In this document: positions 1,545 through 28,183 of the stretch, one piece after another | How the letters are laid out: each line of letters begins with the position of its first letter | Position numbering within the stretch: position 1 is the first letter of the stretch | NCBI GenBank assembly: GCA_003697065.1 | Contig: RFFY01000153.1 | Coordinates: 1 to 33,346, forward strand | Direction: 5' to 3' | Source: Actinomyces sp. | GTDB taxonomy: Bacteria > Actinomycetota > Acidimicrobiia > Acidimicrobiales > Aldehydirespiratoraceae | Length of the DNA stretch: 33,346 bases | The notes under the pieces: model-generated | The model's input: the letters and a program-made list of their open reading frames with translations, nothing else | The model's database searches: none | What the model was told of the DNA's origin: nothing | Translations under genes and position numbers: made by a program

Positions 1545-1548
1545 TGAC

Positions 1549-1578: not shown

Positions 1579-1617
1579 GACGGCCTGATCAAGGTCCCGT
1601 CATGATTGGAGGTCCCG

Positions 1618-2762: not shown

Positions 2763-3115
2763 GCGACGAGACGCGATGGTGGCACCGGGCCGCCTGCCGG
2801 GGCGTCGACCCCGACATCCGACGGCACTTCCACACGACCGCCGAGGGCGAGGGCGATCCGGGTTGGTACGCGCCGGCCTACGCCGTGTGCGGCCGCTGCC
2901 CGGTCGCCGACGAATGCCTCGAGGACGGCCTGTCGGAGCGCTGGCATGTGTGGGGCGGTCTCGCCGTCGGGCAGCGGCGGAGGGTCATTTGGCTGCGCCG
3001 CCGGGGGCGATGGGTCGAGGCGGACGAGGCGGTCGCCGAGTTCCGGCGCCGCAACGCCCGTCTCGCCCGCCGCGGGTGGCGGCCCCGTCGACGCGGCGAG
3101 GCGGTCGTGGCATGA
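2759..3115 (+). CDS. whiB: WhiB-family Fe-S transcription factor
   Basis: ATGA overlap at 2759-2762. Four Cys in the pattern C-x(n)-C-x2-C-x5-C (AACRGVDPD...VCGRCPVADEC), followed by WGG and a basic C-terminal tail. Confidence 0.9.
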   Translation: MSDETRWWHRAACRGVDPDIRRHFHTTAEGEGDPGWYAPAYAVCGRCPVADECLEDGLSERWHVWGGLAVGQRRRVIWLRRRGRWVEADEAVAEFRRRNARLARRGWRPRRRGEAVVA

Positions 3116-4188
3116 GGCGCCCACGTGTCGTGTGGGTCGCCGCCGACCGGCACGGATGCGGCAACTACCGGGTGCACCAGCCCGCGCAGCATCTCATCGC
3201 CGCGGGCGACATCGAGATTCCGCCATCGCCGCCGTCGACGGCCCTCGACGTGCGGGACCTGCAGTGGGCCGATGTCGTCGTCGTCCAGCGTCCGGTCAAC
3301 GACGAGATCGTCGACGTCATCGAGACGGTCACCTCGGCCCCGCCGCCCCGTCCCGCCGTCGTCGTCGAACTCGACGACGATCTCGAACGCATCCCGACCT
3401 CGTCGCCGATCGCCCGGGCCGCCCTGGGCCAACCGGACCGGGTCGCCGCCCTCCACCGGGCGATCCGGGCCGCGGACGCCGTGTGGGTGTCGACCCCGTT
3501 TCTCGCCGACCGGGTGCATGAGGTCGACCCGGACGCCCGTGTGGCCGTGCTCCCCAACGCCGTCCCGGACGCCGCCCTCGCCCCCCCACCGGTCGATGTC
3601 GCCGCGGCGCGTGTCATCGGTTACTCGTCGTCGGTGACGCACGCGGCTGACGTGGAACTGGTGGCGTGGGCGCTCAAGTCGGCCCTCCGGGAGGTGCCCG
3701 ACGCGGCCCTCGAAATGGTCGGGGTCGACTGGACCAGGGCGGTGCCGGGTGTCGCACCCCGGCCCGTGGTGCGTGGTGTCCCCCGGGACCGGGTCCGTTT
3801 CTCGCCGTGGGTGCACGACCTCGTCGGGCACGTCACCCGTCTCGGGTTCACGCTCGGGGTCGCTCCCCTCACCGGGTCGGCGTTCAACATGGCGAAGTCC
3901 GACATCAAGATTCGGGAACTCGCGGTGCGGGGAATCCCGGTCGTCGTGTCCCCGGTCGGACCATATGTCGATCACCCGTGTCCCGGTGTTGTCGAGGTCC
4001 GTGATAATTCGCCGCGGGGATGGCGGGACACGTTGGTCGACCTGCTCACCGATGATGACCGTCGTGCACGACTCGGCGCCCGGGCGCTGGAATGGGCGAT
4101 GAGCGACCCATTTGTCACGACCACCGATGCATGGCGTAGTCAGTACGTTGATGCAATCGCCGATGCGATCGCTATACTATGTGAGTAG
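3112..4188 (+). CDS. GT-B fold glycosyltransferase (family-1-like)
   Basis: ATGA overlap at 3112-3115. N-terminus RVVWVAADRHGCGNYRVHQPAQHL, two Rossmann-like halves, and the C-terminal KIRELAVRGIPVVVSP motif typical of GT-B enzymes. The first 708 nt of track ORF 2404..4188 are off-frame read-through. Confidence 0.7.
   Translation: MRRPRVVWVAADRHGCGNYRVHQPAQHLIAAGDIEIPPSPPSTALDVRDLQWADVVVVQRPVNDEIVDVIETVTSAPPPRPAVVVELDDDLERIPTSSPIARAALGQPDRVAALHRAIRAADAVWVSTPFLADRVHEVDPDARVAVLPNAVPDAALAPPPVDVAAARVIGYSSSVTHAADVELVAWALKSALREVPDAALEMVGVDWTRAVPGVAPRPVVRGVPRDRVRFSPWVHDLVGHVTRLGFTLGVAPLTGSAFNMAKSDIKIRELAVRGIPVVVSPVGPYVDHPCPGVVEVRDNSPRGWRDTLVDLLTDDDRRARLGARALEWAMSDPFVTTTDAWRSQYVDAIADAIAILCE
4148..4178 (+). 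promoter_or_regulatory. Candidate promoter in an AT-rich island (TTGATG-19 nt-TATACT)
   Basis: This is one of only three conspicuously AT-rich patches. It lies at the end of the glycosyltransferase gene, upstream of the ATAGGAGGTCCCGT RBS of gene 4218. The 19-nt spacer is longer than ideal. Confidence 0.4.
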
Positions 4189-4217
4189 ACAGTAAGACAA
4201 GACATAGGAGGTCCCGT

Positions 4218-4916
4218 ATGTCATCCCGCACCATCCTCGCCTCGAGTTTCGGGCTCGTCGACCCTCTGGTCCGGGACACCGAACTCGTGTGGGCGGTCTC
4301 CCAGTGGGACCGGCTCGGCCCGTCGGGGAACTACGTCACCGATCGCGCCGGCGCGATCGGCGCCTACATCGTCCGGGTCAACTGGCCGGCCGCCACCGTG
4401 TGGCACGGCGACGCCCGTGTCGGCGAACTCGACCTCGAGGCCGCCGTGCTCGCCTGCGGCACCGCCGACGACAGTCTCGTCATCGGGCCGCTGGCGTGGA
4501 CTATCGCCGTCGGCGACCGGACCGCCACCCCTCCCCACGAACTCGTCGCCGCCAACCGGGTCCGCTGCGTCACCGCCTGGGCGTCCCGCCAACTCGCCCG
4601 CCGGATCGACGACATCGAACCCACCCCGGCCGAGGTCGGCAGCGAGGTCCTCGCCCGCATCGACGACCTCGCCGAGATCATCGCCGGACTCGGATTCGAC
4701 GCCCACCTCAGCCTCGACGGCGACGACTACACCCCCGGCGACGAATGGACCCTCATCGGTCTCGTCCACGCCTGCGGCGACCTCACCGTCGTCGGCTGCG
4801 ACCGTGACGCCGAAGCGGTCCGGCTCGCCATGGCCGCCGACGGCGCCTTCGACGTGGTCGCCATGTCCCGCACCGTCGACGGCCGACCCCGCTGCCACCT
4901 CCACGTCGCCCACTGA
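4218..4916 (+). CDS. Hypothetical protein
   Basis: Strong RBS ataggaggtcccgtATG and protein-like composition with high GC3. No motif recognised. Confidence 0.8.
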   Translation: MSSRTILASSFGLVDPLVRDTELVWAVSQWDRLGPSGNYVTDRAGAIGAYIVRVNWPAATVWHGDARVGELDLEAAVLACGTADDSLVIGPLAWTIAVGDRTATPPHELVAANRVRCVTAWASRQLARRIDDIEPTPAEVGSEVLARIDDLAEIIAGLGFDAHLSLDGDDYTPGDEWTLIGLVHACGDLTVVGCDRDAEAVRLAMAADGAFDVVAMSRTVDGRPRCHLHVAH

Positions 4917-4957
4917 CCCCCACCACCAACCCAACCCACGACCCCAGGGAGGTCCAC

Positions 4958-5293
4958 ATGCCCATCACCCGCACCAAACCCTCGATCTTCGACGACCTCG
5001 CCACCGGCGAATCACTCGGACGTCTCGGCACCCGCCGGGTCCTCGCCGAGTTCTTCGCCGCGGGCGGCCGCCTCGAGTTGCTCAGCACCGCCGCCCACGG
5101 CGTCGACTTCATCGCCCCCGACGGGGCCGTCATCCGCACCGTCAAATCCAGCGTCCTGCGCGGCATCATCGACGAAATGATCGCCGCGGGCGATTTGGTC
5201 GAGGAACACATGGTCGTTCCGCCGTCCGGGCCGGGGCACCGCTTCCGGGTCCGTCGGTTCGTCACCACCGCCGACAAGGAGGACGAGTCATGA
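4958..5293 (+). CDS. Hypothetical protein
   Basis: RBS gggaggtccacATG and normal composition. No motif recognised. Confidence 0.8.
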   Translation: MPITRTKPSIFDDLATGESLGRLGTRRVLAEFFAAGGRLELLSTAAHGVDFIAPDGAVIRTVKSSVLRGIIDEMIAAGDLVEEHMVVPPSGPGHRFRVRRFVTTADKEDES

Positions 5294-5652
5294 GCATCGG
5301 TCACCGCCTCGGCGCCATCGCCGCCGCCGCCGTCATCGCCGCCACCGGGTGCACCGCCACCCTCGCCGACTTCGGCCCCCGGGGCGGACTCGACGCCGAG
5401 GTCGTCCCGGCGACCCTCGTCGGCGACCGGTGCACCCCGCCCCACGTGACGGTCGGCGCCGCCGACGGGGTCGACCCGGCGACGGTCGCCGACACCGTCA
5501 TCGTGGTCACCACCCCCGCCGGAGTCGAATCCGGTCCCGTCGGCCCGTCGGTCGGCGTCTACTGGATCGACACGCCCGGCGTGTTCACCGCCGCCGTCGA
5601 GGGCGGCGGGACCCTCGTCGTCGGCGCATGGGACGGCACCTGCGACGGGTGA
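5290..5652 (+). CDS. Putative secreted lipoprotein
   Basis: ATGA overlap at 5290-5293. The N-terminus MSIGHRLGAIAAAAVIAATGC has a basic n-region, a hydrophobic core and a lipobox-like A-T-G-C. It is the tail of track ORF 4417..5652. Confidence 0.65.
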   Translation: MSIGHRLGAIAAAAVIAATGCTATLADFGPRGGLDAEVVPATLVGDRCTPPHVTVGAADGVDPATVADTVIVVTTPAGVESGPVGPSVGVYWIDTPGVFTAAVEGGGTLVVGAWDGTCDG

Positions 5653-5660
5653 CGACGACC

Positions 5661-5666
5661 TAGCAT
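5661..5666 (+). promoter_or_regulatory. TAGCAT -10-like hexamer 7 nt upstream of ATG 5674 (candidate leaderless promoter)
   Basis: TAGCAT-cgatgcc-ATG with no SD. Matches the actinobacterial TANNNT -10 at the spacing expected when transcription starts at the start codon. Confidence 0.35.
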
Positions 5667-5673
5667 CGATGCC

Positions 5674-6135
5674 ATGGGCCGCATCGACTACCCGGACGCC
5701 GACCGGGCCGCCTTCGTCCGCCTCGCATCCGAGGTCGGGCTCGGCGAAGCCCGGCGGCGTCTCGGGTACCCGGCGTCGCACCACACGGCCCGCCGGTGGA
5801 TGGACGCGGCCGGGGTCCGCCCGGCCGACCCCATCGAATCCGCCAAACGCGCCGTCGAGGCGCGGGTGGCGTGGGACGTGGCCCGCCGGCGCGAACTTGT
5901 CGACCGGGTCCTCGACCGCCTCGCCGAACGTCTCGAGGCGCCGGTCGACCACCGGGGTCGTCCCGCCCAACTCCAGGCGACCGAACTCCGGGCCGCGGCG
6001 CGGGCGTTGGCGCTCCTCGACGAGGTCGCCGAGACCCTCGACCGTCGTCTCACCGAGGGCGGGTCCGGCCCGGTCGTCGAGGACGACGTTGAACGCGAGT
6101 TCCGCCGGATCGTCGCCCGCCTCACCCCGGAATAA
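5674..6135 (+). CDS. HTH DNA-binding protein; possible small terminase or regulator
   Basis: The N-terminus LGEARRRLGYPASHHTARRWMDAAGV is HTH-like and is followed by a long helical/coiled region. This resembles some actinophage TerS architectures, but the gene is distant from terL. Confidence 0.6.
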   Translation: MGRIDYPDADRAAFVRLASEVGLGEARRRLGYPASHHTARRWMDAAGVRPADPIESAKRAVEARVAWDVARRRELVDRVLDRLAERLEAPVDHRGRPAQLQATELRAAARALALLDEVAETLDRRLTEGGSGPVVEDDVEREFRRIVARLTPE

Positions 6136-6152
6136 TAGACGTAGCTAAAGTG

Positions 6153-6181
6153 TTGATATAAGTGAGCCGATAGGCTACAAT
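6153..6181 (+). promoter_or_regulatory. Strong sigma70-like promoter TTGATA-17 nt-TACAAT
   Basis: TTGATA at 6153-6158, a 17-nt spacer, then TACAAT at 6176-6181. It lies inside the most AT-rich intergenic region of the window, upstream of the aaggaggtcccacATG RBS. Confidence 0.65.
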
Positions 6182-6206
6182 AGGTGACAACACAAGGAGG
6201 TCCCAC

Positions 6207-6863
6207 ATGCGAGTGCGTGAGAACGAACGAATCGTCACCAGCGCTCACGGTCACGTCGACATCGTCGACGTCAACCCGGACGGGTCGGTGACCATCGAAG
6301 CGGTCGTGCCGCGGCCCCTGCCCACCTGCGGGTGCTACCACCCGTCGTGGTCTCGGCCGGGAATCGACGGCCGCTGCCCGGGCTGCTCCATGTCGGCTCG
6401 GACCACGTGGTTCCTCGTCGACCGTCGCACCATCACCGAGGACGACATCGACCACAACGGCATCGTCACCCTCGGGATGCGATTCCTGGGCGAGTGCCAG
6501 GAGCGGGTCGAGGAGGACGCCATCGTGACCGCCGAGTCGATCGTGGCGCCCATCAGCGAGGCCCTGCGCTCGGGCACCTGCCCGACGCTCGGCGGGGTGA
6601 CGATCACCAACGACGCCGGTCGCTTCGTGTCGCCCGAGTGCGACATGGGGTCGGTCGAGGTCGACCTCGTCCACGGCCGAGTGGCCGCCGAGGTGACCCT
6701 CGTCGACTTCGACGGCGAGGTCCGCACGGTCGACGCCTTCGGCGACGACCTCCACCCGACGTGGGTGGCCCGCTTCCGCCGCTTGCTCAACGGCGGGGTC
6801 GTCGACGACGACGACGTCTACTGCGAGCCGACCGAGGACGGCGACTGGTACTTCACCCTGTGA
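6207..6863 (+). CDS. Hypothetical Cys-rich protein (CxC...CxxC cluster)
   Basis: Strong RBS. Contains PTCGCYHPSWSRPGIDGRCPGC, a possible zinc-binding knuckle. Confidence 0.8.
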   Translation: MRVRENERIVTSAHGHVDIVDVNPDGSVTIEAVVPRPLPTCGCYHPSWSRPGIDGRCPGCSMSARTTWFLVDRRTITEDDIDHNGIVTLGMRFLGECQERVEEDAIVTAESIVAPISEALRSGTCPTLGGVTITNDAGRFVSPECDMGSVEVDLVHGRVAAEVTLVDFDGEVRTVDAFGDDLHPTWVARFRRLLNGGVVDDDDVYCEPTEDGDWYFTL

Positions 6864-6867
6864 TCCC

Positions 6868-6901
6868 GATGCCCGACGGGGGCGCCCCCCCGTCGGGCAT
6901 C
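6868..6901 (+). terminator. Intrinsic terminator-like hairpin with a 15-bp perfect stem
   Basis: gatgcccgacggggg (6868-6882) pairs with cccccgtcgggcatc (6887-6901) around the loop cgcc. It starts 5 nt after the stop of gene 6207..6863. No U-tract, which is common in high-GC actinobacteria. Confidence 0.7.
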
Positions 6902-6951
6902 ATCATCAATCCACTTCAACACAAACCCAAGACACCATAGGAGGTCCCGAT

Positions 6952-7650
6952 ATGACCAACGAACGACTCACCGAACTGATCAACGAGGGCCGCATCGCGC
7001 CCGACGACGTCGTCGGATGGGAGGACATCCCCGAGGACGTCGATCCCCTCGCCTGCGTGGTCGGCAAGACGACCAGCGACCTCGTCGGCGCCCGACTCGC
7101 CCGCCGTGAGATATCGGCCCGCCAGGTCGAGTCGCTGCGCCTCGCCGAGAAACTCATCGCCGCCGACCTCGACGTCATCCCCGACGAGGTCCGGTCCGCC
7201 ATCGCCAAGATGACCGCCCTCGACCCGACCGAGGCGGCCCGCCTGCTCGTCGACAGCATCGACGCCCGCGCCGCCGCCGAGGCCGTCGCCGGGGTCGTCG
7301 GCATGTTCGCGGCCGGGCTCGCCCATCGGGCCGCGGTCGTCGTGACCCGCATGATGGTCAACGGCGTCGACCGCGACACCATCGGCGACGGCGTCGTCGC
7401 CGTGAGCCTCGACCTCGACGACGACCTGCCCGCCGACATCGACGACTCCGTCCGTGAACTCATCGGGTCGGTCGCCGCGGCCTTCGTCGCCGCGGAGGTC
7501 ACCCGCCTGTCGAAGGCGGTCACCCGCACCCGATCCCGCATCGACGGCGGCGGGGGCGTCGACGCCGACGACGTCGACGCGATGACCCGCCTCGCCGAGG
7601 CCATCAACGAGGTGGTCGCCGACCTCGACGACGAGGACGACGACCGGTGA
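6952..7650 (+). CDS. Highly acidic hypothetical protein
   Basis: RBS ataggaggtcccgatATG. By hand count about 49 D/E against about 24 K/R. The C-terminus ends DLDDEDDDR. Confidence 0.8.
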   Translation: MTNERLTELINEGRIAPDDVVGWEDIPEDVDPLACVVGKTTSDLVGARLARREISARQVESLRLAEKLIAADLDVIPDEVRSAIAKMTALDPTEAARLLVDSIDARAAAEAVAGVVGMFAAGLAHRAAVVVTRMMVNGVDRDTIGDGVVAVSLDLDDDLPADIDDSVRELIGSVAAAFVAAEVTRLSKAVTRTRSRIDGGGGVDADDVDAMTRLAEAINEVVADLDDEDDDR

Positions 7651-8837
7651 CCGCCGCCAACGAGACCGCACCGGCGACCTCCGATGCGGTGTCACCACCT
7701 GCTGGTGCCGGGCCGACATGGCCCGGCGCCGGCGCGTCCGGCCGCTGGATCGTCGGCGACGCCATCGACGGTATCCGCCGCCTCGCCGCCGAGGGCGTCA
7801 CCGTCGACCTCGTCCTCACCTCCCCCCCGTTTCTAGGATTGCGGTCATACATACCCGGCTCCGATCCCCGTGAGATCGGCCGGGAAACGTCACCAGCCGA
7901 GTTCGTCACCCGGATTCTCGATGTCGTCGCCGCCGCCGCCGACATCCTCGCCCCGACCGGCACCATCGCCGTCGAACTGGGCGACACCTACTCCGGGTCG
8001 GGGGGCGCGGGCGGCGACTATGACACCGACGGGTTGTTCGCCGGTCGGCCCCACTGGAAGCAGCGTCGCGGGGACGACCCCGACGCCTGGCCCCTCCCGA
8101 AGTCGCTCGCCATGGTGCCCGAACTGGTCCGGGTCGCCCTCGCCTACGGCGTCCACCCGCTCACCGGGGAGCCATCCCCGGCGGGACGGTGGCGGGTCCG
8201 CAACGTCGTCCGGTGGGTGCGCCCGAACCCGGTCCCGCGTGCCCTCGGCGACAAGTTCAAGCCCGCGACGTCGGACATGCTCATCGCCACCCGTGCCGCG
8301 GACCGGTGGTGGGACGACATCCCGGTCCGGGACCCCGCCACCGGCACGGCGATGACCGACGCCATGATCGTCGCCCCCGAAGGCCACCGCGACCATCCCG
8401 CCGCGTGGCCGCCGAAACTCATCGCCCCGATCGTGGTCGCCGCCTGCCCGCGCCACGTGTGCCGAATCTGCGGGACACCCTCGAGACGCATCGTCGAACG
8501 CGTCCGCCGGGACCGCCGCACCGGCGAGCCCGTGACCGTCGACATGAACTCGCGCTGCGGCGACCCGACCGGCCGCTACTCGACCGGCTTCGACGTCGAG
8601 GTCGAACGGCGCACCGTCGGATGGTCGACATGTGAGCATTCGGACGACTTGGCCGACCCCGACGTGTGGCGTCCCGGGATCGTGCTCGACCCGTTCGCCG
8701 GGTCGGGGACGACGGTCGCCGTCGCCGTCGGCAACGCCCGCGCCGGGGTCGGCATCGACCTCGACCCCCGCAACGAGGCCCACGCCGCCGACCGTCTCGG
8801 CATGTTCCTCGTCGACACCGTGAGGCTCGACCCGTGA
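7647..8837 (+). CDS. Beta-class amino DNA methyltransferase, SPPF type (probably N4-cytosine)
   Basis: GTGA overlap at the start. Motif IV DLVLTSPPF precedes motif I VLDPFAGSGTT (beta-class order). SPPF/SPPY is characteristic of m4C enzymes such as M.PvuII. A Cys-rich insertion (CPRHVCRICG...C...C) is present. Confidence 0.85.
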   Translation: MTAANETAPATSDAVSPPAGAGPTWPGAGASGRWIVGDAIDGIRRLAAEGVTVDLVLTSPPFLGLRSYIPGSDPREIGRETSPAEFVTRILDVVAAAADILAPTGTIAVELGDTYSGSGGAGGDYDTDGLFAGRPHWKQRRGDDPDAWPLPKSLAMVPELVRVALAYGVHPLTGEPSPAGRWRVRNVVRWVRPNPVPRALGDKFKPATSDMLIATRAADRWWDDIPVRDPATGTAMTDAMIVAPEGHRDHPAAWPPKLIAPIVVAACPRHVCRICGTPSRRIVERVRRDRRTGEPVTVDMNSRCGDPTGRYSTGFDVEVERRTVGWSTCEHSDDLADPDVWRPGIVLDPFAGSGTTVAVAVGNARAGVGIDLDPRNEAHAADRLGMFLVDTVRLDP

Positions 8838-9883
8838 CGCGGCCTCGGGTGGTGTCCCTGTGCACCGGGGTCGGCGGACTCGACCTCGCCCTCGACCCCG
8901 ACCGGGCCGATCTCGTCGCCCTCGCCGAGACCGACCCGAGACCGGCGTCGGTCCTCGCCGCACGCTTCCCCGACATCCCGAATGTCGGGGACTGGACCGA
9001 CGAGGCCACATGGGACGCCTTCGCCGACGCCGACATGATCATCGGCGGGCTGCCCTGCCAGCCCGTCTCACTCGCCGGGCAACGTAGGGGGACCCGTGAC
9101 GAACGATGGCTGTTCGACGACCTCATCCGACTCGTTCGCCGTCTTGATGCCGCGGGCACACGACCCGTCGTGTTCCTCGAGTCGGTGCCCGGGATGCTCA
9201 CCGCAGACAACGGACACGCTATGGCCCGAATATGTGGCGGCCTGGCCGCCCTCGGGTGGGTGGGCGAATGGACGGTTCTACCGGCGTCCGCCGTCGGTGC
9301 ACCCCATCGCCGCCGCCGATGGTGGCTCCTTGCTGCCCACCCCGACGGCCCGCGACCCGAAGGACAGTGGTGGCGGCCGCCGCGGGCGTCGAAGGCGCCG
9401 ACTCATTCTCACGCTGCGCGATATGGCGACGTTGCCGACGCCGTCGAACGATGGGAACGGATCACCGGCCGGGCCGCCCCCGCCGACATCCTCGCCGGGC
9501 AACGAGTGAACCCGCGGGTCGCCGAGTGGATGATGGGATTCCCCGACGGGTGGGTGACCGGCATCGACGACCTGTCGTTCGCCGCCCAACTGCGCGCCCT
9601 CGGCAACGCCGTCGTCCCCCACCAGGCCGCCGCCGCCGCCCAAATACTCGCCGCCCGCCTCGAGAACCGCGAGCCACCACCACTCCCGACACCGCCGACC
9701 GGGCCGCTCATCCCCACCCCCGTCGCCACCGACGCCGCCGGAACCCGGAACCTAACCGCCCGCCGCCGACCCGGTAGCACCGGCCGACCCGGCCGGACAC
9801 TCACCGACTGGGCATGGATCACCACCGGGCTCGCCGACACCCACCCCGCATCCAACCGGACACCCACCCCGACATCACCATGA
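8834..9883 (+). CDS. C5-cytosine DNA methyltransferase
   Basis: GTGA overlap at 8834. Motif I SLCTGVGGLDLA, motif IV GGLPCQPVS, motif VI FLESVPG, motif VIII APHRRRRWWLLA, then RWE...EWMMGFPDGWVT and motif X LGNAVVP. The C-terminus carries LIPTPVATD...TLTDWA. Confidence 0.9.
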   Translation: MTRPRVVSLCTGVGGLDLALDPDRADLVALAETDPRPASVLAARFPDIPNVGDWTDEATWDAFADADMIIGGLPCQPVSLAGQRRGTRDERWLFDDLIRLVRRLDAAGTRPVVFLESVPGMLTADNGHAMARICGGLAALGWVGEWTVLPASAVGAPHRRRRWWLLAAHPDGPRPEGQWWRPPRASKAPTHSHAARYGDVADAVERWERITGRAAPADILAGQRVNPRVAEWMMGFPDGWVTGIDDLSFAAQLRALGNAVVPHQAAAAAQILAARLENREPPPLPTPPTGPLIPTPVATDAAGTRNLTARRRPGSTGRPGRTLTDWAWITTGLADTHPASNRTPTPTSP

Positions 9884-20230: not shown

Positions 20231-22728
20231 CGGTCACCCTCGTCGGAACGCCGACATCGACCGGTCTCAAGGAAGTCACGTCGTTCACGTTCTCGCACAC
20301 GGTCCCGGCCGGGCAGGCCGACACCGTTCTCGTCGTCGACGTCGGCGCCCGCGCCGCGCACGCCACCGCCGTCACCTTCGCCGGGCAGTCCCTCACCAAG
20401 GTCGTCGGTGACACGACCGGCACGGCCCGCATGTCGACATGGGTGCTCGTCAATCCACCGACCGGGGCGGGCACCGTGTCGGTCACCCTGTCCGCGTTGG
20501 CCGGGTTCGTCGTCGCCGGTGCACGGACCTTCGCCGGTGTCGACCAGTCCACCCCGGCGCCGACCTCGGCGTCGAACGCGGGGACGTCGAACGCCCCGTC
20601 CGTCGACGTGGCCTTCGGCGAACTCGAGGGTGGTCTCGTCGTCGACGCCGTCTACCTCAACGCCCAAACGAACACACTCACCCCGACCTCGGGCACCACC
20701 GACTGGTCCGCCACGATCGAGACCCAACCGGGTCGGGGCGCCCACCGGACCCCGACCACCACCGGGACGTTCACCGCCGGGTGGACCGCCGGTAAATCGG
20801 GGTCGTGGTCCTGCACCGCGATCGTGCTGCGTCCATCCGCGGCGCATCTCGCCGAGGTCGCCGTCGCCGGGTCCGACACCGCCGTCGGGTCGGTGACGGC
20901 GAACCTCGCCGCCCCCCTTGAGGTCGGGGACGTCCTCCTCGTCGCCGGGACGGTCACCGGGTCCGACGAGGCCCTCCTCGTCGCCACCGCCACCGGGGTG
21001 ACGTTCACCGTCCAGGCGGGGGCCGGGCAGTCCACCTTCGAGACCGGCATCCGCTTGTTCTCGGGTGAGGTCACGTCGGGAGGGGCGACATCGGTGACCC
21101 TCACCCGGTTCGCCGGGTCGGCACCGCTGGGTCTCGTCGTCGCCGTCTACCGCGGCTACGGGTCGTCGCCGACGTTCTCGGCGACCGCGACCGCGTCGGC
21201 CGACGCGACCGGGACCATCCAGTCCGTCACCCACACGGCGACCGCGGACAATGACCCCCTTCTCGGCGCCGGGGTCGGGGCGGGTGCCGGGTCGGCGCTC
21301 ATCATCGTCAACCCGGACGGGTCGATCGCCGAGACCAAATCGTCCGGTGGCGTCAACATCGACACGGTCGGTCGGGCGACGAACGACGCCGGTCGCACCG
21401 CGGGCACCACCGTGTCCCTGTCGCTCACGTCGGCGACATGGCGGTCCGCGGGCGCGGTCTCGTTCAACGTCGGCGGCGGCGGCACGAACTACACCCGCAC
21501 CGCGGCGGAGACGGTCACCCCCGCCGACGCCGGGCCGCAGGTGGCGACGACCGGCCGGGCCGGCGCGGAGACGACCGCCCCCACCGACTCGGGGTCGCAG
21601 GCGGCGACCAGTGTCCGCGCCGGCGCGGAGACGACCACCCCCGCCGACGCCGCGGCGGCGACCCTCATCATTGCCGCTACCGCATCGGAGACGGTCACCC
21701 CGACTGACGCCGTGTCGGGGAGCGGTTCGTCGGCGCGGTCCGCCGCCGAGACGGTGACCCCCACCGACGCGGGATCGACCACGTCGACGACCGCCCGGTC
21801 GGGCGCGGAGACGGTCACCCCCACCGACGCCACGGGCGGCGCCCACACGGCCTCGAGAACCTCGACCGAGACGGTCGCACCGGCGGACACCGGGTCCACC
21901 ACCGTTACCGGCGGCGGCACCCTCACCCGCACCGCGGCGGAGACGGTCACCCCGACCGACACCGTGACCGGAGTGTCGACGACCGCCCGGTCGGGCGCGG
22001 AGACGGTCACCCCCACCGACACCGGGTCGCAGGTGGCGACGACCACCCGCGCCGGCGCCGAGTCGGTCGCCCCCGCCGATGGGGTGGTCCCAGTTTCGGG
22101 GACCGTTAGGTCGGGCGCGGAGACGGTCACCCCCGCCGACGCCGGGTCGCGGGCGGCGGCCGCCTCGAGAACGACGGCGGAGACCGTCGGCCCGACGGAC
22201 GGGGCGTCGACTGTCCTGGGGGGCGGCACGAATCACGTCCGCACGGCGGCGGAGACGGTCGGCCCGACCGACACCGGGTCGGTGGTCCGTCAGTCGGCCC
22301 GCACCGCCGTCGAGTCGGTCACCCCGACCGACGTGGGATCGGGCACGTCGACGGTCTCGAGGTCGACCGGGCCGGAGTCGGTCACCCCGACCGACACGGC
22401 GACCCCGCAGGTCTCGACCCGCACCACCCGGACAGCGGCGGAGTCGGTCACCCCGACCGACACGGCACCGGTGTCGGCGACGTCGACCCGCCTCGCCGCC
22501 GAGTCGGTCGCCCCCGCCGATGGGGCGTCGGTGTCGGCGGCGATGGTCGTCCTGGCGGCCGAGACCCTCACCCCGGCCGACATCCTGCGGGTCGGCGGGT
22601 CGGTCGCCGCGGACGTGTCCGCCCCCGGATGGGTCACGGCCCGGTCCCGGGCGCGGGTCGTCGGCGTATCCGCCCCGGTCATCGTCCAGGTCCGTCGTCG
22701 TGCGGGCGTAGTAGGCTCCCCGTCATGA
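20227..22728 (+). CDS. Large repeat protein: two beta-sandwich-like N-terminal domains plus 18 tandem 20-aa Thr/Pro-rich repeats
   Basis: ATGA overlap at 20227. Residues about 1-205 and 206-425 look like duplicated lectin/LamG-like modules. From residue about 428 there are 18 units with the consensus AETVTPTD-x-GS-x(3)-TT-x-R-x-G. Confidence 0.85.
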   Translation: MTVTLVGTPTSTGLKEVTSFTFSHTVPAGQADTVLVVDVGARAAHATAVTFAGQSLTKVVGDTTGTARMSTWVLVNPPTGAGTVSVTLSALAGFVVAGARTFAGVDQSTPAPTSASNAGTSNAPSVDVAFGELEGGLVVDAVYLNAQTNTLTPTSGTTDWSATIETQPGRGAHRTPTTTGTFTAGWTAGKSGSWSCTAIVLRPSAAHLAEVAVAGSDTAVGSVTANLAAPLEVGDVLLVAGTVTGSDEALLVATATGVTFTVQAGAGQSTFETGIRLFSGEVTSGGATSVTLTRFAGSAPLGLVVAVYRGYGSSPTFSATATASADATGTIQSVTHTATADNDPLLGAGVGAGAGSALIIVNPDGSIAETKSSGGVNIDTVGRATNDAGRTAGTTVSLSLTSATWRSAGAVSFNVGGGGTNYTRTAAETVTPADAGPQVATTGRAGAETTAPTDSGSQAATSVRAGAETTTPADAAAATLIIAATASETVTPTDAVSGSGSSARSAAETVTPTDAGSTTSTTARSGAETVTPTDATGGAHTASRTSTETVAPADTGSTTVTGGGTLTRTAAETVTPTDTVTGVSTTARSGAETVTPTDTGSQVATTTRAGAESVAPADGVVPVSGTVRSGAETVTPADAGSRAAAASRTTAETVGPTDGASTVLGGGTNHVRTAAETVGPTDTGSVVRQSARTAVESVTPTDVGSGTSTVSRSTGPESVTPTDTATPQVSTRTTRTAAESVTPTDTAPVSATSTRLAAESVAPADGASVSAAMVVLAAETLTPADILRVGGSVAADVSAPGWVTARSRARVVGVSAPVIVQVRRRAGVVGSPS
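21508..22592 (+). repeat. In-frame tandem repeat array, 18 units of mostly 60 nt
   Basis: The GAG (Glu) codon of successive units lies at 21508, 21568, 21628, 21688, 21748, 21808, 21868, 21940, 22000, 22060, 22120, 22180, 22252, 22312, 22375, 22441, 22501 and 22561. The three blocks are each led by GGG-T-x(2-3)-RTA. Confidence 0.95.
22712..22717 (+). promoter_or_regulatory. TAGGCT -10-like hexamer 7 nt upstream of ATG 22725
   Basis: TAGGCT-ccccgtc-ATG, lying inside the 3' end of the repeat-protein gene. Confidence 0.3.
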
Positions 22729-23063
22729 GCGTCGCCGCAGTCCCGATCCCGTCGGTGTCCGCCGAACAACTCGAGGTCACATGGGGCGATACCGTCGACC
22801 CGACCGCTGGGAACGCCGAATACGCCGTCGTCGCCAATGGGACGACTCCGTCGTCGGGGGACTGGAGGTCGGCGACATTCGGGACATGGGACCCGTCCGC
22901 GAGCCAGGTCACGATCACGACCGGGGTGGTCGGGTCGCCGTCGTCGGGCGCGACCGTCGACGTGGACATCTCGGGCGCGACCGTGTGGGACCTGTGGGTG
23001 CGGGTCGTGGGGTCGTCCGAGCGACCGGCCCGGCTCGCCGCCACCCTCGTCGTCACCCCCTAG
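22725..23063 (+). CDS. Hypothetical Ig/FN3-like small protein
   Basis: ATGA overlap. Beta-rich sequence LEVTWGD...YAVVANGTTPSSGDW...VTITTG...WDLWVRVVG. Confidence 0.65.
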   Translation: MSVAAVPIPSVSAEQLEVTWGDTVDPTAGNAEYAVVANGTTPSSGDWRSATFGTWDPSASQVTITTGVVGSPSSGATVDVDISGATVWDLWVRVVGSSERPARLAATLVVTP

Positions 23064-23090
23064 GTCCGCGCCGGCGGCGCCGCCGGGGAC
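23064..23090 (+). terminator. Intrinsic terminator-like hairpin after the accessory island
   Basis: The palindrome ccggcggc/gccgccgg (23071-23086) is extended by gtcc/ggac with a 3-nt bulge and followed by TATTGT. It starts 1 nt after the TAG stop. Confidence 0.55.
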
Positions 23091-23154
23091 TATTGTCGGG
23101 GTCGCCACCCGGACCGTCTCGGGCGAAGGCACCAACCATCATCTCCCTCGGGGC

Positions 23155-23210
23155 GTCACCCGCCCCGACCGGCCGTAAGGGGAAGGCGACCCATGGTCGG
23201 GGCGGGTGAC
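23155..23210 (+). promoter_or_regulatory. 16-bp perfect stem with a 24-nt loop that displays an SD-like sequence and ATG 23193
   Basis: gtcacccgccccgacc (23155-23170) pairs perfectly with ggtcggggcgggtgac (23195-23210). The loop is ggccgtaaggggaaggcgacccat. Confidence 0.6.
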
Positions 23211-23693
23211 AACTCGAGGGGGGAACATCTCGAGGACATGTCCCGGGCCGCACGACCCGCACCCGTCGAGGGTGGACCCCGGACCCGGGACCCCCAAGGT
23301 CGACGCGGGGAGCGAGTCGTGCGGATCGTCAAGGCCGAGGTCCACCTGAAGGAACGGGACCTTGAGCGCGCCGCCGCCGGGGACCTGACCGAATATCTCG
23401 CCCGGGTCGGTCGCCGATGGGTCGACATCGCCGGTCGGATCGTCCCCGTCGACACCGGCGACCTCCGCTCGACGCTCCGCTATGACGTCAAGACCAAGGG
23501 CTCGGAGCCGGTCCTCACGTGCCGGGCCGGGGGCGTCAAGGGCGCCGTGACCGGCCGGGTCGTCGACTACGCCGTCTACGTCGAGAACGGCACGTCCCGC
23601 CAGCGAGCCCAACCCTACATGCGCACCTCGTTGCGCTACGTCGCCACGGTGTTGGGCGTCCGCATCGAATGGAAGGCGGGGATGGGGAGGTGA
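23193..23693 (+). CDS. HK97 gp10-like tail completion / neck protein
   Basis: VPVDTGDLRSTL...VDYAVYVENGTSRQRAQPYMR matches the HK97 gp10 family pattern. The start is uncertain (ATG 23193 or the downstream GTG near 23319). Confidence 0.75.
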   Translation: MVGAGDNSRGEHLEDMSRAARPAPVEGGPRTRDPQGRRGERVVRIVKAEVHLKERDLERAAAGDLTEYLARVGRRWVDIAGRIVPVDTGDLRSTLRYDVKTKGSEPVLTCRAGGVKGAVTGRVVDYAVYVENGTSRQRAQPYMRTSLRYVATVLGVRIEWKAGMGR

Positions 23694-23696
23694 GAC

Positions 23697-24137
23697 ATGG
23701 TGCTCGTCACCGGTGAGCAGGTCGCCGTCGAATGGGTCCGGGCCGTGGGCGCCCCGGTCGACTCGTCCCTCGTCGCCACCCGCCTCCCGCGGACATGGGA
23801 CAACGACACGTTCGGCGCGTCCGGGTTCGTGACCGTCTGGTCCGTCGACTCCGGGCACCGGCACGACACGACCCGCAGGGTGACCCTCGCCGACGTGTCC
23901 ACATGGGCGTACCGCCCCGGCGGGGCCGATGTCCGCCCCAACTGGGGTCTCGCCTCGCAACTCGCCACCGCCGTCGAGGCGGCCGCCCTCGACAATCCAC
24001 GCCGCACGGTCTCCCCGCCGGGCGGGACCGTGCTCGTCGAGGACGTCCACGTCGTCACCGGTCCCCGGCGGATGTCCGACCCGTCGGGTCTCGCCCGGTT
24101 CGTCGTCGGACTCATGTTCACCTGGCACGCCGCATAG
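23697..24137 (+). CDS. Tail terminator protein
   Basis: 146 aa between the gp10-like protein and the tail tube gene. Pattern V..WL.....V.T..P......FV.V typical of siphovirus tail terminators. Confidence 0.65.
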   Translation: MVLVTGEQVAVEWVRAVGAPVDSSLVATRLPRTWDNDTFGASGFVTVWSVDSGHRHDTTRRVTLADVSTWAYRPGGADVRPNWGLASQLATAVEAAALDNPRRTVSPPGGTVLVEDVHVVTGPRRMSDPSGLARFVVGLMFTWHAA

Positions 24138-24146
24138 GAGGTCACC

Positions 24147-24311
24147 ATGCCTGTCGATATCGACTCGATCCCGCCCGACGAACTCGCCGAACTCGCCGCC
24201 CGCGGCCATGCCGCCGCCCTCGCCCGTCTCGAGGGCGGCGCGAAGCGCACCAAGTCCACGGCCCACAAACGCGCCGCCGCCGAGGACGTCACCCCCGGCG
24301 ACGACACGTGA
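24147..24311 (+). CDS. Small ORF (54 aa) absent from the supplied track
   Basis: Strong RBS ataggaggtcaccATG. Translates MPVDIDSIPPDELAELAARGHAAALARLEGGAKRTKSTAHKRAAAEDVTPGDDT and fills the gap before the tube gene. Confidence 0.55.
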   Translation: MPVDIDSIPPDELAELAARGHAAALARLEGGAKRTKSTAHKRAAAEDVTPGDDT

Positions 24312-24344
24312 CCCAACCCGAACACCTGACCCAGGAGGCCACCG

Positions 24345-24905
24345 ATGGCTGTGACCGTTTCCAACCTCGTCCAAGGCCCGGCGACAATGTACGTCGGGGC
24401 GTTCGGGGCCGCCGAACCCGCCCCGTCCGCGGTCGGCACCGCGCCCGACTCGAACACGTGGACCGACGTGGGGGCGACCCGGGGCGGAGTCATGCTGCGC
24501 TTCGCGCCCTCGTTCTCCGAGTTCGAGGTCGACCAGTTGGTCGACAAGGCGGGCGCCCGACTGGTGTCCCGCGAGTTCACGCTCGTCACCGAACTCGCCG
24601 AGGCGACACTGGCGAACCTCGACATCGCCTTCAACGACACGGTATCGGCGTCCGGGTCGGGCTACGACTCGCGTGAACCGGCGGACCCGTCCGCCGCTGT
24701 CGACCCGACCTACCGGGCGTTCATCGTCGACGGGTGGGCGCCGGGCGCCGGGAAGATGCGGCGCATCATCGTCCGCCGTGCCCTCCAGGTCGCCCAGTTC
24801 GAGGCCGCCTACCGGCGAGACGACGAGACCGTGTTCCCGGTCGAGTTGCGCGCCTACTACGTGTCCGCCTCGATCCGGCCCCTCGAGATCATCGACCAGT
24901 TGTGA
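24345..24905 (+). CDS. Major tail (tube) protein
   Basis: RBS caggaggccaccgATG, 186 aa, positioned before the chaperone pair. Sequence pattern GPATMYVGAFG...W.DVGAT.GGV...EFEVDQL typical of actinophage tail tube proteins. Confidence 0.8.
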   Translation: MAVTVSNLVQGPATMYVGAFGAAEPAPSAVGTAPDSNTWTDVGATRGGVMLRFAPSFSEFEVDQLVDKAGARLVSREFTLVTELAEATLANLDIAFNDTVSASGSGYDSREPADPSAAVDPTYRAFIVDGWAPGAGKMRRIIVRRALQVAQFEAAYRRDDETVFPVELRAYYVSASIRPLEIIDQL

Positions 24906-24943
24906 CCTGACCAACCGACCCCGGTCCCAAGCGGAGCCCTGAC

Positions 24944-25279
24944 ATGTCAGACACCAAGAACACCGCCACGCCGCGTCTCGTGCGGCGACCCACCCGCAAC
25001 GAACCCGATGAGCGCATCATCGTCGAAGTGGTCACCGACCCGGACACCGACCCCCCGGCGACGACCCCCATCGTCGTCGATGTCGCCAACGTCCCGGTGT
25101 CGGCCCTCATGCGGTTCATGCGGGCGGTCGGGCGCAACGAACTCGAGGCCGTCGCCCACCTCCTCGACGACCTCCTCGGCGAGGAACAAATGCGGCTCGT
25201 CGAGGAGGCGGCGACATCGTTCGCCGACATCCGCCTCGTCGCCAACCGCCTCCTCGATGTCCTCCTCAGCGTCCGATGA
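24944..25279 (+). CDS. Tail assembly chaperone (G-like)
   Basis: 111 aa between the tube and tape measure genes, with an acidic helical C-terminus. Confidence 0.75.
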   Translation: MSDTKNTATPRLVRRPTRNEPDERIIVEVVTDPDTDPPATTPIVVDVANVPVSALMRFMRAVGRNELEAVAHLLDDLLGEEQMRLVEEAATSFADIRLVANRLLDVLLSVR

Positions 25280-25280
25280 C

Positions 25281-25616
25281 CGGGGCCTGATCCTCGATGC
25301 CGACATCGTGCGTCGGGTGGCGCGGGTGGCGTGGCTCGCGGACGACGACGAACTACGCCGGGCGCACGAGGCGGACCTCGCCGTGTGGGGCGTCGCCGGT
25401 GGCCTCCGGGTCTCCACCGGGTGGGCGGTCGCCGAGTTCGCCGGCGCGTGGGACGGCGCCGTCCGCCGCCTCCTCGCCGCCCGCGTCCGGGGTCGTGACA
25501 TGACGACGCCTCGGCGTCCACCCGACGCCCCGGTGACGGTCGACGCCGCCGCGCTCCCCGCCCTCACCGGTGGCATGGTCGCCTACCGTCGTGTCGACAC
25601 TGGAGACATCCCATGA
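25281..25616 (+). CDS. Tail assembly chaperone extension (T-like), in the +1 frame relative to 24944..25279
   Basis: This frame is open from 25008 and has protein-like sequence with high GC3 from about 25281. It ends with an ATGA overlap on the tape measure start. No good independent start or RBS. The site and mechanism of any frameshift are unresolved. Confidence 0.5.
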   Translation, partial: RGLILDADIVRRVARVAWLADDDELRRAHEADLAVWGVAGGLRVSTGWAVAEFAGAWDGAVRRLLAARVRGRDMTTPRRPPDAPVTVDAAALPALTGGMVAYRRVDTGDIP

Positions 25617-28183
25617 GCAACACCGTCGGCGAAGCCAAACTCATCATCGTCCCCGAGTTCGACCGGAAGCGCACCAAGGAACTCGGCACGGTGATCAAGG
25701 ACGAGTTCTCGGACGCCTGGCGGAACTCCGGCATCCGCCGCCAGGGCCGCCGCCTCATCGGCGAGATGCGGGACGGCATCATCGACGAATCATCCAAGAT
25801 TCTCGCCGGGGGTGTCCTATCGTCGGTCGGGTTGTCGTTCGTCGAGGAACTCGGCGCACCGCTGGAGCAAATCGAGACCAAGGTCGCGACCGTGTTCGGC
25901 GACACCCGCGACGAGATCGAGGCGTGGGCCGCCAACAATGCTCACTCGTTCGGGCTGACCCGCCGCGAGTTGCTCAAGGTGTCGGCCGACTTCGCCGACC
26001 TCATCGTCCCGATGGGCGCCACCCGCGAGCAGGCCGAGTCGATGACCGAGCAGGTGGTCGGTCTCGCCGGGGCGCTGTCGGAGTGGACCGGCGGGGAACG
26101 CTCGGCGGCCGAGGTCGCCCACATTCTGTCGTCGGCGATGCTCGGCGAACGCGAGGCACTCAAGGGACTCGGCATTTCGATCCGGGAGGCCGAGGTCCAA
26201 CAACGGGCGCTCGCGATCGCCCAGGCGGACGGCCGGGACCAGGTCACCCAACTCGACCGGGCGCTCGCCACCCAGCAACTGATCTTCGCCAAATCGAAGG
26301 ACGCTCAACGGGCGTTCGCCGAGGGGTCCGACACCCTCGCCCGCCGCCAGGCCGAAGCGAGGGCCAAACTCGCCGAGACCCGCGAGGAACTCACCGAAGC
26401 CCTCGTCCCGGCCGTGTCCGTCATGGCGGACCAGTTGTCGAAGTTCGCCGGGGGGGTCAACACGGCGACCCAGTTCCTCACCCACCATGTCGAAACCCTA
26501 ATGGTGCTGGGCGCCACCGTCGGCGGCGGGTTCCTGACCGCCAAACTGGGTCTCGCCGCCGCGTCGATGAGCCGATTCGTGGTCGAAATGAAACAGGCGA
26601 TCGAAGCGGCCGGTGGTCTCCGCTCCGCCATCTCGCAAATGTCGAAGTTCAACTTCGCCGCCGCCGGGGTCGGCGCCGCCCTCGGTGTCGCCACCTTCGC
26701 CGTCATCAAATGGCGCAAGGCCCAGCAGCAAGCCCGGGAACGGGTCGAACGCCTCACCGAGTCGCTGCGCACCCAGGCGGGCACCATCTCCGTCCTCGCC
26801 GACGGATGGGAGGACTACATCGCCCAGCAATCCGAGTTCGCGAAGAACAATCAAATCGACGACCTTCGCCGACTCAACATGACGTTCGGCGACCTCCAGG
26901 ATGTTGTGACCGGCGGGACCGACGGGCTGCGCCGCTTCATCAAGGCGGCCGTCGACGCCGGTGAAATCAGCCTCAAATCCGGGGTCACCGTCGACCAGCT
27001 AGCCGAGAACTTCGACAACCTCGAGATCACCGCCGACGGGGTCCGCGACGGATGGGTTCGGCTCGCCGACGGCAACACCGACCTCCTCGACTCGTTGGAG
27101 CAAACGATCGAGGCGACCGCCGAGGCGACCCGGAAGGACCTCGAACGGATCGCCGTGATGGACGGCATCCCGGGCGTCATCCGTCAGCAGGTCGACGAGT
27201 TGCTCGCCGCGAAGATGTCGACCGTCGACTTCGTAGCCGCCTGGGAACAACTGCGCCCGACCGTCGAGAAATACACGTCGGCCGCCGATGACGCCACCGG
27301 CTCGACCGGCGACATGGCGGACACGATGGGCGACGCCGCCGACGAGACCGCATCCCTGTCCGACGAGGTCGACCAGTTGCGCGACGCCCTCGACGACTTG
27401 TTCGGCGCCCAGCAGGACGTCGACGAGGCGACCTTGGACCTCCTCGACAAGTTCGACAAACTCACCGAGGCGGCCGCCGAAGCCGAAGGCCAAACGTCGA
27501 TCTACACCGAGTCCGGTCGGCGGCTCACCGAACGCGCCCGGGACGCGGCGTCCGCCATGCGGGACCTCACCCTCGCCGAACTCGCCAACGGCGAATCCCT
27601 CGACATGGTCCGCGAGAAACAGGACCGGCGAATCGACCGGCTCCGCCGCGAACTCGAGCAGGCCGGGTTCACCCGGTCCGAGATCGAGGACCTGATCGAC
27701 ACCTACGCCCTCGTCCCCGACGAGGTCGCCACGGACATCATCGCCAATCACGAGGACGCCGACACGGCGGTCAGCGAGTTCCGGCGCCGACTCGACGAAC
27801 TCGACGGGCGGACCGTCGCCGTTAGTATCGCCATGCAACCCGGGCACGGTCACCCGTCGGGGGTCGCGACCGACATCGCCCCGTCGTCGACCGTGGTGCT
27901 CCCACCCCCACCGGACACGCTGCGACGCCGTGCCCGTGGCGGTCTCGTCCGGGGCGGGCACCCGGCGATCGTCGGCGAGGTCCCCGGACAGGACGAACTC
28001 GTCCTCCCGATCGCCCGCCCCGCCGACCTCATGGCCCTCGTCAAGGCGTTCGGCGGCGACGACCGGCCCCGCATCCAGGTCGGCGACATCAACGTCACGG
28101 TCACCGGCGGCGACGTCGACCCGTGGCAGGTCGCCCGCGAGGTGCGGGACACCATCGTGAGACTGGAGGCCGCGCACCGATGA
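25613..28183 (+). CDS. Tape measure protein
   Basis: 856 aa, largely helical, with central hydrophobic segments (MVLGATVGGGFLTAKLGLAAA, AAAGVGAALGVATFAVI). Canonical position. Confidence 0.9.
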   Translation: MSNTVGEAKLIIVPEFDRKRTKELGTVIKDEFSDAWRNSGIRRQGRRLIGEMRDGIIDESSKILAGGVLSSVGLSFVEELGAPLEQIETKVATVFGDTRDEIEAWAANNAHSFGLTRRELLKVSADFADLIVPMGATREQAESMTEQVVGLAGALSEWTGGERSAAEVAHILSSAMLGEREALKGLGISIREAEVQQRALAIAQADGRDQVTQLDRALATQQLIFAKSKDAQRAFAEGSDTLARRQAEARAKLAETREELTEALVPAVSVMADQLSKFAGGVNTATQFLTHHVETLMVLGATVGGGFLTAKLGLAAASMSRFVVEMKQAIEAAGGLRSAISQMSKFNFAAAGVGAALGVATFAVIKWRKAQQQARERVERLTESLRTQAGTISVLADGWEDYIAQQSEFAKNNQIDDLRRLNMTFGDLQDVVTGGTDGLRRFIKAAVDAGEISLKSGVTVDQLAENFDNLEITADGVRDGWVRLADGNTDLLDSLEQTIEATAEATRKDLERIAVMDGIPGVIRQQVDELLAAKMSTVDFVAAWEQLRPTVEKYTSAADDATGSTGDMADTMGDAADETASLSDEVDQLRDALDDLFGAQQDVDEATLDLLDKFDKLTEAAAEAEGQTSIYTESGRRLTERARDAASAMRDLTLAELANGESLDMVREKQDRRIDRLRRELEQAGFTRSEIEDLIDTYALVPDEVATDIIANHEDADTAVSEFRRRLDELDGRTVAVSIAMQPGHGHPSGVATDIAPSSTVVLPPPPDTLRRRARGGLVRGGHPAIVGEVPGQDELVLPIARPADLMALVKAFGGDDRPRIQVGDINVTVTGGDVDPWQVAREVRDTIVRLEAAHR

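Follow-up and report, generated by a model that had tools for sequence, protein, structure and literature searches.

What is a long tandem repeat doing in the middle of a phage structural operon? Contig RFFY01000153.1 (assembly GCA_003697065.1), which is 33346 nucleotides (nt) long, has 71% GC and is analysed here in its entirety as the window, contains an open reading frame (ORF) for an 833-residue protein with 18 tandem units of about 20 residues. The initial annotation, made from the sequence alone, described this array as Thr/Pro-rich and mucin-like, placed two lectin-like beta-sandwich domains before it, and offered as possible roles a fibre or beta-solenoid, an adhesin, or a scaffold for O-glycosylation by a phage glycosyltransferase. 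Is the array a disordered spacer that carries sugars? Or is it a folded stalk, and is the protein then part of the virion? We conclude that the protein is probably an accessory fibre or adhesin of an actinobacterial siphophage, with the array as its stalk. On this reading the stalk is jointed, acidic and beta-rich and bears binding domains at its N-terminal end, and the protein is attached through a basic C-terminal tail, possibly aided by the product of a 173-residue partner gene. The suggestion of a fibre, beta-solenoid or adhesin is consistent with the evidence; that of a glycosylation scaffold fared less well.

The protein contains 18 copies of the motif E-[ST]-x-x-P-[TA]-D, with Glu at residues 428 to 779; in none of 2000 shuffles of the protein is the motif found more than once. 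The intervals between successive Glu residues are 20 residues (60 nt) in 13 of 17 cases; the remainder are 24, 24, 21 and 22 residues (72, 72, 63 and 66 nt), an exact match to the number and spacing of in-frame units first described. Tandem Repeats Finder confirmed the period of 60 in three sub-arrays, at 21505-21652, 21937-22150 and 22435-22582. Counted from the Ala before each Glu, the units take up residues 427-797, or 21505-22617, so that the extent of the array needed correction: the end originally given, 22592, falls inside unit 18. Each unit does have a conserved and a variable half, in frame and within a higher-order block structure. The motif GGG(G)T-x(2-3)-RTA stands directly before unit 1 and at the ends of units 7 and 12, and these caps split the array into blocks of 7, 5 and 6 units, as had been proposed (Table 1).

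Does this repeat exist outside the window? When 1.84 billion representative proteins were searched exhaustively with HMMER, at a cut-off of E <= 1e-3, there were 1546 matches to the repeat protein, which are of two kinds, to the array or to the N-terminal domain. Array is matched to array in P0003 (E 7e-54), P0004 (2e-34), P0005 (8e-30) and P0006 (1e-28), and among the top 150 matches there are 28 other proteins with at least five motifs, overwhelmingly at a spacing of 20 residues. The shortest arrays in this family have about 5 units and the longest more than 40. Pooling the units gives the consensus a-a-[ED]-T-V-T-h-S-D-a-v-t-R-v-x-t-h-h-R-T, with conservation of 89% at D9, 87% at R19 and 61% at R13. 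All 18 window units have both E3 and D9, and 15 have an Arg 10 to 13 residues past D9, which is missing in units 3, 17 and 18. The window units carry Pro at position 7 and have Ser, Thr, Ala or Gly where the consensus has R13 and hydrophobic residues at 14, 17 and 18; typical family members are hydrophobic and Arg-rich rather than Ser/Thr-rich. Since R13 is only partly conserved in the family itself, we treat the window array as a divergent, hydrophilic and acidic member, judging by sequence comparison.

A profile built from non-window family members only matches the window array at 147.5 bits (E 4.5e-48), with 8 domains over residues 421-786. Among 200 composition-preserving shuffles of the array, any that matched had negative whole-sequence scores, and the match to the family is therefore not an effect of composition. 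A cap motif, GG..R/E-T, starts or punctuates the arrays of 9 of 24 other family members; because of this recurrence the block structure is, as far as these sequences tell, a feature of the repeat family. The 20-residue register and the charged positions are kept in phage proteins from 33-71% GC, which suggests a folded repeat. In these phage proteins the arrays are fused to varied globular domains. Two further members look cellular: P0009, with a beta-propeller-like N-terminus and a C-terminal hydrophobic segment, and P0014, with a propeller-like N-terminus. Judged from such N-termini and the hydrophobic segment, the arrays apparently occur in cell-surface proteins as well, and the unit seems to serve generally as a stalk module outside the cell.

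The family has neither a Pfam nor an NCBIfam model. The window protein matches no family in Pfam (E <= 1), PHROGs (E <= 0.1) or NCBIfam (E <= 0.01), and nothing in PDB sequences or, by tblastn, in INPHARED. No Pfam or NCBIfam repeat model matches the canonical repeat-bearing homologues, for which there was one sub-threshold and unrelated Pfam hit, in P0010; PHROG 23524 (function unknown) covers part of the family and matches the array of a relative, not the window protein itself. The earlier statement that no characterised phage protein is known to have this repeat is thus upheld for Pfam and NCBIfam, and profile searching of the repeat uncovered a large uncurated family and none with an established role. 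Word-indexed searching was limited by its index: with the whole protein, against 5.8 billion proteins, it returned the query alone where HMMER gave 1546 matches, and with a 60-column repeat profile it returned nothing. A tblastn search of phages with P0004 gave no match, possibly through low-complexity masking. A literature search on the repeat found nothing relevant; a cryo-electron microscopy paper on HFTV1 and a preprint on type IV pilus tail fibres were set aside as having no bearing on it. Every source name on record for family members is 'hypothetical protein'. The 20-residue repeat, its caps and its partner are undescribed; repeat-built fibre stalks as such are already known.

Over residues 426-800 the composition is 22.9% Thr, 19.2% Ala, 10.9% Ser, 10.9% Val and 6.4% Pro (the Pro figure being 6.2-6.4%). 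Pro, Thr and Ser together make up 40% of the array, Ser and Thr make up 34%, and the net charge is -17; the variable half of each unit is rich in Ser, Thr and Gly. An array of this composition is Thr/Ala-rich and acidic, and the description as Thr/Pro-rich and mucin-like does not fit it. The unusual acidity and hydrophilicity of the window stalk come from the loss of R13 and of most hydrophobic consensus positions, and this stalk may be more flexible than those of typical members. AlphaFold2, run on residues 415-833 as a monomer with a 27-row family alignment, gives each unit, at low confidence, one strand of 12-13 residues and a loop of about 7 residues. In blocks 1 and 2 the predicted local distance difference test score (pLDDT) reaches about 60-70, and the array as a whole is predicted to be beta-rich. 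The best PDB match of the array model, Pontibacter CsgA 8c50_A (E 0.77, template modelling score (TM-score) about 0.2), is non-significant. A Caulobacter phage Ccr34 protein found by Foldseek at E 1e-4 was rejected as not credible, with a TM-score of 0.25 and a root mean square deviation of 27 A.

How might such a protein work? Each unit would contribute one long beta-strand and a turn, and the stacked units would build an elongated beta-rich rod with its register held by the charged positions. The Gly-rich GGGT..RTA caps would restart this rod twice, giving three segments with possible hinges between them. At one end the two N-terminal beta-sandwich domains would bind something on the host envelope, and at the other the basic, duplicated C-terminal tail, perhaps together with the 173-residue partner, would fix the protein to the virion.

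The two N-terminal domains are diverged copies of one another: blastp of residues 1-215 against residues 206-426 gives 26% identity in a 215-column alignment (E 3e-6). The claim of two beta-sandwich domains before the array therefore stands as regards two related domains, the first of them confidently all-beta; for the second the AlphaFold2 confidence is low. The epithet lectin-like is not supported: Foldseek searches with the N-terminal model yield assorted jelly rolls with PDB E values of 0.03-0.1, all of them above 0.02 and non-significant. The N-terminal domain has no match in Pfam, NCBIfam or PDB (sequence profile against PDB), and no relatives of the N-terminal half were found in IMG/VR. 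It is nonetheless common among the top HMMER hits, where this domain of about 205 residues is found in 119 of the 149 other proteins and in at least two copies in 53. The domain family co-occurs with Laminin_G_3, Spherulin4, fn3, DUF2341 and InlB B-repeat domains, all of which are extracellular or carbohydrate-associated modules, and in P0008 it sits with DUF11, Ig and CARDB domains. This company suggests an extracellular binding role for the N-terminal domains.

The closest relative of the window protein is P0002 (locus L001; NCBI GCA_003695295.1, contig RFIJ01001040.1), at 68% identity, or about 70% when only domain 1 is compared. Beyond domain 1 its sequence passes into a Gly/Ser/Ala-rich stretch that is, by eye, roughly periodic at 20 residues, with no second domain, and the gene upstream of it is neither the partner nor the nuclease found upstream in the window. 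That layout and the different upstream gene indicate modular shuffling. At the other end of the window protein, 11 of the 17 residues of the tail duplication (22615-22716) are identical and the net charge is +6 over residues 801-833. Other repeat family members likewise end in short duplicated motifs, and we infer that the basic C-terminal tail is the attachment end.

The window is, on its gene content, an actinobacterial phage, because genes for WhiB and ERF are accompanied by a siphophage structural module that is complete. This module, all on the + strand, comprises TerL, portal, MuF-like, scaffold, major capsid, adaptor, Neck1, tail terminator, tail tube, tape measure and Tal-like genes. 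The repeat gene lies between the capsid and adaptor genes on one side and the Neck1, tail terminator and tail tube genes on the other. The nearest portal proteins are those of Streptomyces phages, at no more than 32% identity, and megablast of 17000-29000 against phage genomes found nothing. Among the other genes of the window (Table 1), the 1004-residue Tal-like protein ends in a Peptidase_S74 domain, an intramolecular chaperone, and includes an Fn3-like stretch that scores below the Pfam cutoff. It represents another fibre-like protein, located at the tail tip, and over part of its length shares 39% identity with the repeat-bearing protein of L023. There are also three methyltransferase genes and an amidase gene. 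The ends of the contig share the 9-nt sequence CCGTTACGC beside poly-C runs, and may be genome termini or mark circular closure.

Table 1. Coordinates of the repeat protein, its parts and other features of the window
Feature	Position	Strand	Remarks
ORF of repeat protein	20227-22728	+	833 residues; carries the tandem array
N-terminal domain 1	20227-20841 (residues 1-205)	+	All-beta sandwich; AlphaFold2 pLDDT mostly >90
N-terminal domain 2	20842-21471 (residues 206-415)	+	Diverged copy of domain 1; AlphaFold2 confidence low
Cap 1, GGGGTNYTRTA	21472-21504 (residues 416-426)	+	Start motif of block 1
Block 1, units 1-7	21505-21936 (residues 427-570)	+	Motif scan, Tandem Repeats Finder, DNA comparison
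Cap 2, GGGTLTRTA	21910-21936	+	Within unit 7
Block 2, units 8-12	21937-22248 (residues 571-674)	+	Motif scan, Tandem Repeats Finder, DNA comparison
Cap 3, GGGTNHVRTA	22219-22248	+	Within unit 12
Block 3, units 13-18	22249-22617 (residues 675-797)	+	Most degenerate; intervals 20, 21, 22, 20, 20 residues
Basic C-terminal tail	22615-22725	+	17-residue duplication VSAPGWVTARSRARVVG / VSAPVIVQVRRRAGVVG, then SPS
Partner gene	19333-19854	+	173 residues; PHROG 5417, function unknown
SNase-like endonuclease gene	19865-20230 (alternative start 19772)	+	PHROG 452, E 4e-29; Pfam SNase
Antisense ORF	19885-22236		783 residues
Downstream ORF	22725-23063		112 residues
Tal-like protein	29382-32396	+	1004 residues
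Amidase	312-1544
ERF	1606-2292
WhiB	2747-3115
N6/N4 DNA methylase	7647-8837
C5 cytosine methylase	8666-9883
Methyltransf_24	32557-33297
Shared contig ends	1-9, 33338-33346		9 nt

Is the repeat protein accompanied by other genes? The partner gene ends 373 nt upstream of the repeat ORF. Its family holds at least 2819 proteins, of 150-190 residues, and among the best hits listed, most share 53-76% identity with the window copy. A partner homologue (51% identical) lies directly upstream of P0003 in L011, and homologues with 32% identity lie directly downstream of the repeat protein in L004 and L005. In L014/L016 and L017 a repeat-array protein is found a few kb from the partner on the same strand; in L019 a related repeat of about 18-20 residues was recognised by eye only in the neighbouring protein, which the array profile does not match. 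Among 80 IMG/VR loci fetched with the partner, an array protein is present a few kb away on the same strand in 28, often directly adjacent, and these loci range from 36 to 69% GC. The background frequency of such arrays, taken from the exhaustive search, is about one in a million proteins. That the partner stands repeatedly beside repeat-array proteins suggests, on these gene neighbourhoods, a conserved two-gene cassette.

The cassette has been found in several settings. It lies between capsid and connector genes in the window, in L011, where P0003 follows the capsid and MuF genes and precedes a run of small genes, and in L017, where the tail tube gene lies downstream of the repeat protein. 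The partner-array pair comes after the Tal protein in L023, a locus with a tail tube protein that matches that of the window at E 2e-36, and in L005 the cassette adjoins tail-fibre genes. Burkholderia phage BcepGomr (gp17-gp18-gp19) and Aeromonas phage phiA008 have the partner between a degenerate-repeat protein and a tail-fibre protein. In the Nitrososphaera provirus Pro-Nvie1 the partner comes after a baseplate gene and has a small neighbour, Nvie_25, with a weak match to the repeat profile; gp39 of halovirus HHTV-1 is a partner homologue with no array detected beside it. From these occurrences one might go further and propose that the array and the 173-residue gene form an undescribed mobile two-gene fibre cassette, in which an adaptor-like protein is joined to a variable repeat protein of a fold new to PDB, charge-laddered and with one strand per unit. 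Tailed viruses of Actinobacteria, Proteobacteria and Archaea would share this cassette, and its place could be either the neck or head or the tip of the tail. We hold this wider proposal only tentatively and regard it, taken as a whole, as doubtful.

In the window the SNase-like endonuclease gene, probably inserted into the cassette as a mobile element, separates the partner and repeat genes. The repeat protein P0004 of L010 has an HNH gene beside it, and the SNase-like and HNH genes may be cassette-associated mobile or homing endonucleases. ATGA overlaps join the nuclease stop to the start of the repeat ORF (20227-20230) and the stop of the repeat ORF to the start of a 112-residue ORF (22725-22728), which has no Pfam or NCBIfam match. 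The N-terminal 38 residues of the partner marginally resemble a 171-residue 'Structural protein' in PDB entries 26la and 44nx (chain U). The hmmsearch E value of 0.09 and the hhalign probability of 81% make this a lead only, not evidence. The PDB chain is identical, over the 67 residues tested, to a protein of Pseudomonas phage KPP25/phiR18 (L102 7980-8495).

Could the array be something other than a virion stalk? It might be no true array at all, being instead the product of assembly collapse or expansion, or a frame that is open by chance at high GC. Tandem repeats misassemble readily, and the window is a contig from metagenomic data; long spurious ORFs do arise in high-GC DNA, the antisense ORF being an example. 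The GC content at third codon positions, however, is 0.92 in the repeat ORF and 0.94 in its array, against 0.66 in the antisense ORF, which is on this ground an artefact of high GC. Pairwise DNA identity between units is 45-90%, with 90% reached only by units 1 and 9, so that units differ at 10-55% of positions. The best long pair, the cap and first two units of block 1 (21477-21647) against their equivalent in block 2 (21909-22079), is 80% identical over 171 nt. Because the units are so diverged, reads can be placed unambiguously and assembly collapse is unlikely; the strong protein-level matches to independent sequences argue the same way, and an artefact is very improbable. Duplication of whole blocks was also considered and rejected, since blocks 1 and 2 correspond only in the cap and the two units that follow it. 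Divergence of this degree speaks against easy slippage, yet unit number varies widely across the family. A less improbable alternative is that the array is a mucin-like, disordered Ser/Thr-rich spacer, O-glycosylated by glycosyltransferases of the phage or host. An analogy would be the glycosylated C-terminal extensions of mycobacteriophage capsid and tail-tube proteins that Freeman and colleagues reportedly described in 2023. The Ser and Thr content, the Ser/Thr/Gly-rich variable halves and the low AlphaFold2 confidence, in block 3 especially, are what such a spacer would show, and a Methyltransf_24 gene is present in the window. In L019, a WhiB-carrying phage contig, a cluster of glycosyltransferase, epimerase and methyltransferase genes (1374-8976) lies immediately upstream of the partner homologue, the only hint tying the cassette to glycosylation. 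A mucin-like spacer is nevertheless hard to reconcile with a Pro content of about 6%, with a 20-residue register and E3, D9 and R19 kept across hundreds of proteins, in phages of 33-71% GC, or with a profile match of 147.5 bits where composition-matched shuffles fall below zero. In the 31 window ORFs scanned with Pfam, all taken as coding, no glycosyltransferase was detected and only Methyltransf_24, so that the phage glycosyltransferase for which the array was to be a scaffold did not turn up among them. We consider the disordered spacer unlikely; a folded stalk may still be glycosylated, or a host enzyme may act on it.

About as unlikely, or slightly more so, is that the protein never enters the virion and is a secreted or cell-surface adhesin made by the phage or prophage with the stalk repeat of cellular surface proteins. 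The cellular-looking P0009 and P0014 would fit this, as would the association of the N-terminal domain family with DUF11, Ig and CARDB in P0008 and with Laminin_G_3, Spherulin4 and InlB B-repeat domains elsewhere, and the adjoining nuclease gene suggests a mobile insertion. Against it, the protein starts with MTVTLVGTPTST, in which no hydrophobic leader is seen by eye (a signal-peptide predictor was not applied), nor was an anchor motif noticed. The gene is inside a late structural operon and translationally coupled to its neighbours, and in other phages the cassette stands beside Tal, baseplate and tail-fibre genes. A non-virion adhesin, like an assembly artefact, is therefore unlikely. The stalk of an accessory fibre or adhesin, which we prefer, has several observations to contend with. 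The array model has an average pLDDT of 52.8, with block 3 under 40, and of the five models four score less than 35. Foldseek found no convincing PDB or BFVD structure match for the array. The window units are far more hydrophilic than the family consensus, and for this reason the window copy could be partly disordered. Binding by the N-terminal domains is suggested by domain co-occurrence only, and no named homologue places any family member in a virion, every source name on record being 'hypothetical protein'. Only 28 of the 80 partner loci have a detectable array protein. The site of the cassette also varies, with head and neck genes here and tail-fibre genes elsewhere, and a position that differs between phages is no guide to where the protein sits on the window's virion.

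The nearest known system is the uncurated repeat family itself, with which the window protein shares the 20-residue period, E/D3, D9, R19 and GG..R-T caps, as well as fusion to globular domains, a short C-terminal tail and a member of the 173-residue partner family nearby. The window protein is unlike it in having Pro7, no R13, no hydrophobic residues at 14, 17 and 18, and a charge of -17. Among viral fibre shafts are the triple beta-spiral of adenovirus, with 15-residue repeats, the beta-helices of T4 gp5 and gp12, and the head fibre gp8.5 of phi29. The likeness to these is in short tandem units forming an elongated shaft that carries a globular binding domain, with genes in the structural module. 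Unlike them, the window protein has no Pfam fibre family hit and no significant Foldseek hit; its array has a 20-residue period and one predicted long strand per unit, and its globular domains are N-terminal, not C-terminal. Curli CsgA is alike in repeat length, about 20 residues, and in the abundance of Ser, Thr, Ala and Gly in its repeats; it differs in having two strands per repeat and a Gln/Asn ladder, where the window array has one predicted strand and an acid-base ladder. Mucin-like Pro/Thr/Ser-rich (PTS) domains and the mycobacteriophage extensions are comparable as Ser/Thr-rich tandem sequence in a phage structural protein, but the window array has low Pro and a conserved charged register, and no glycosyltransferase was found in the window. 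Neck and collar fibres, such as the T4 whiskers and the neck passage structure of lactococcal phages, are alike by gene position only, a large accessory gene between head-completion and neck/tail-completion genes. There is no sequence relation to them, and in other phages the cassette is mostly among tail-tip or tail-fibre genes.

For the window itself, the array is a genuine and fairly ordinary structural feature and not a glycosylation system, and the window copy is a divergent member of its family in an unusual genomic position. The wider importance lies in the family. Host recognition proteins of actinobacterial phages are poorly understood, and although the repeat and its partner are common, their homologues numbering in the hundreds to thousands, neither of them has a curated family model, and both lack a structure and a named function. 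Should the repeat indeed be a modular stalk of adjustable length for different binding domains, this would aid the annotation of many 'hypothetical' phage proteins. It would also help to predict receptor-binding modules, and might provide an engineering scaffold for phage retargeting.

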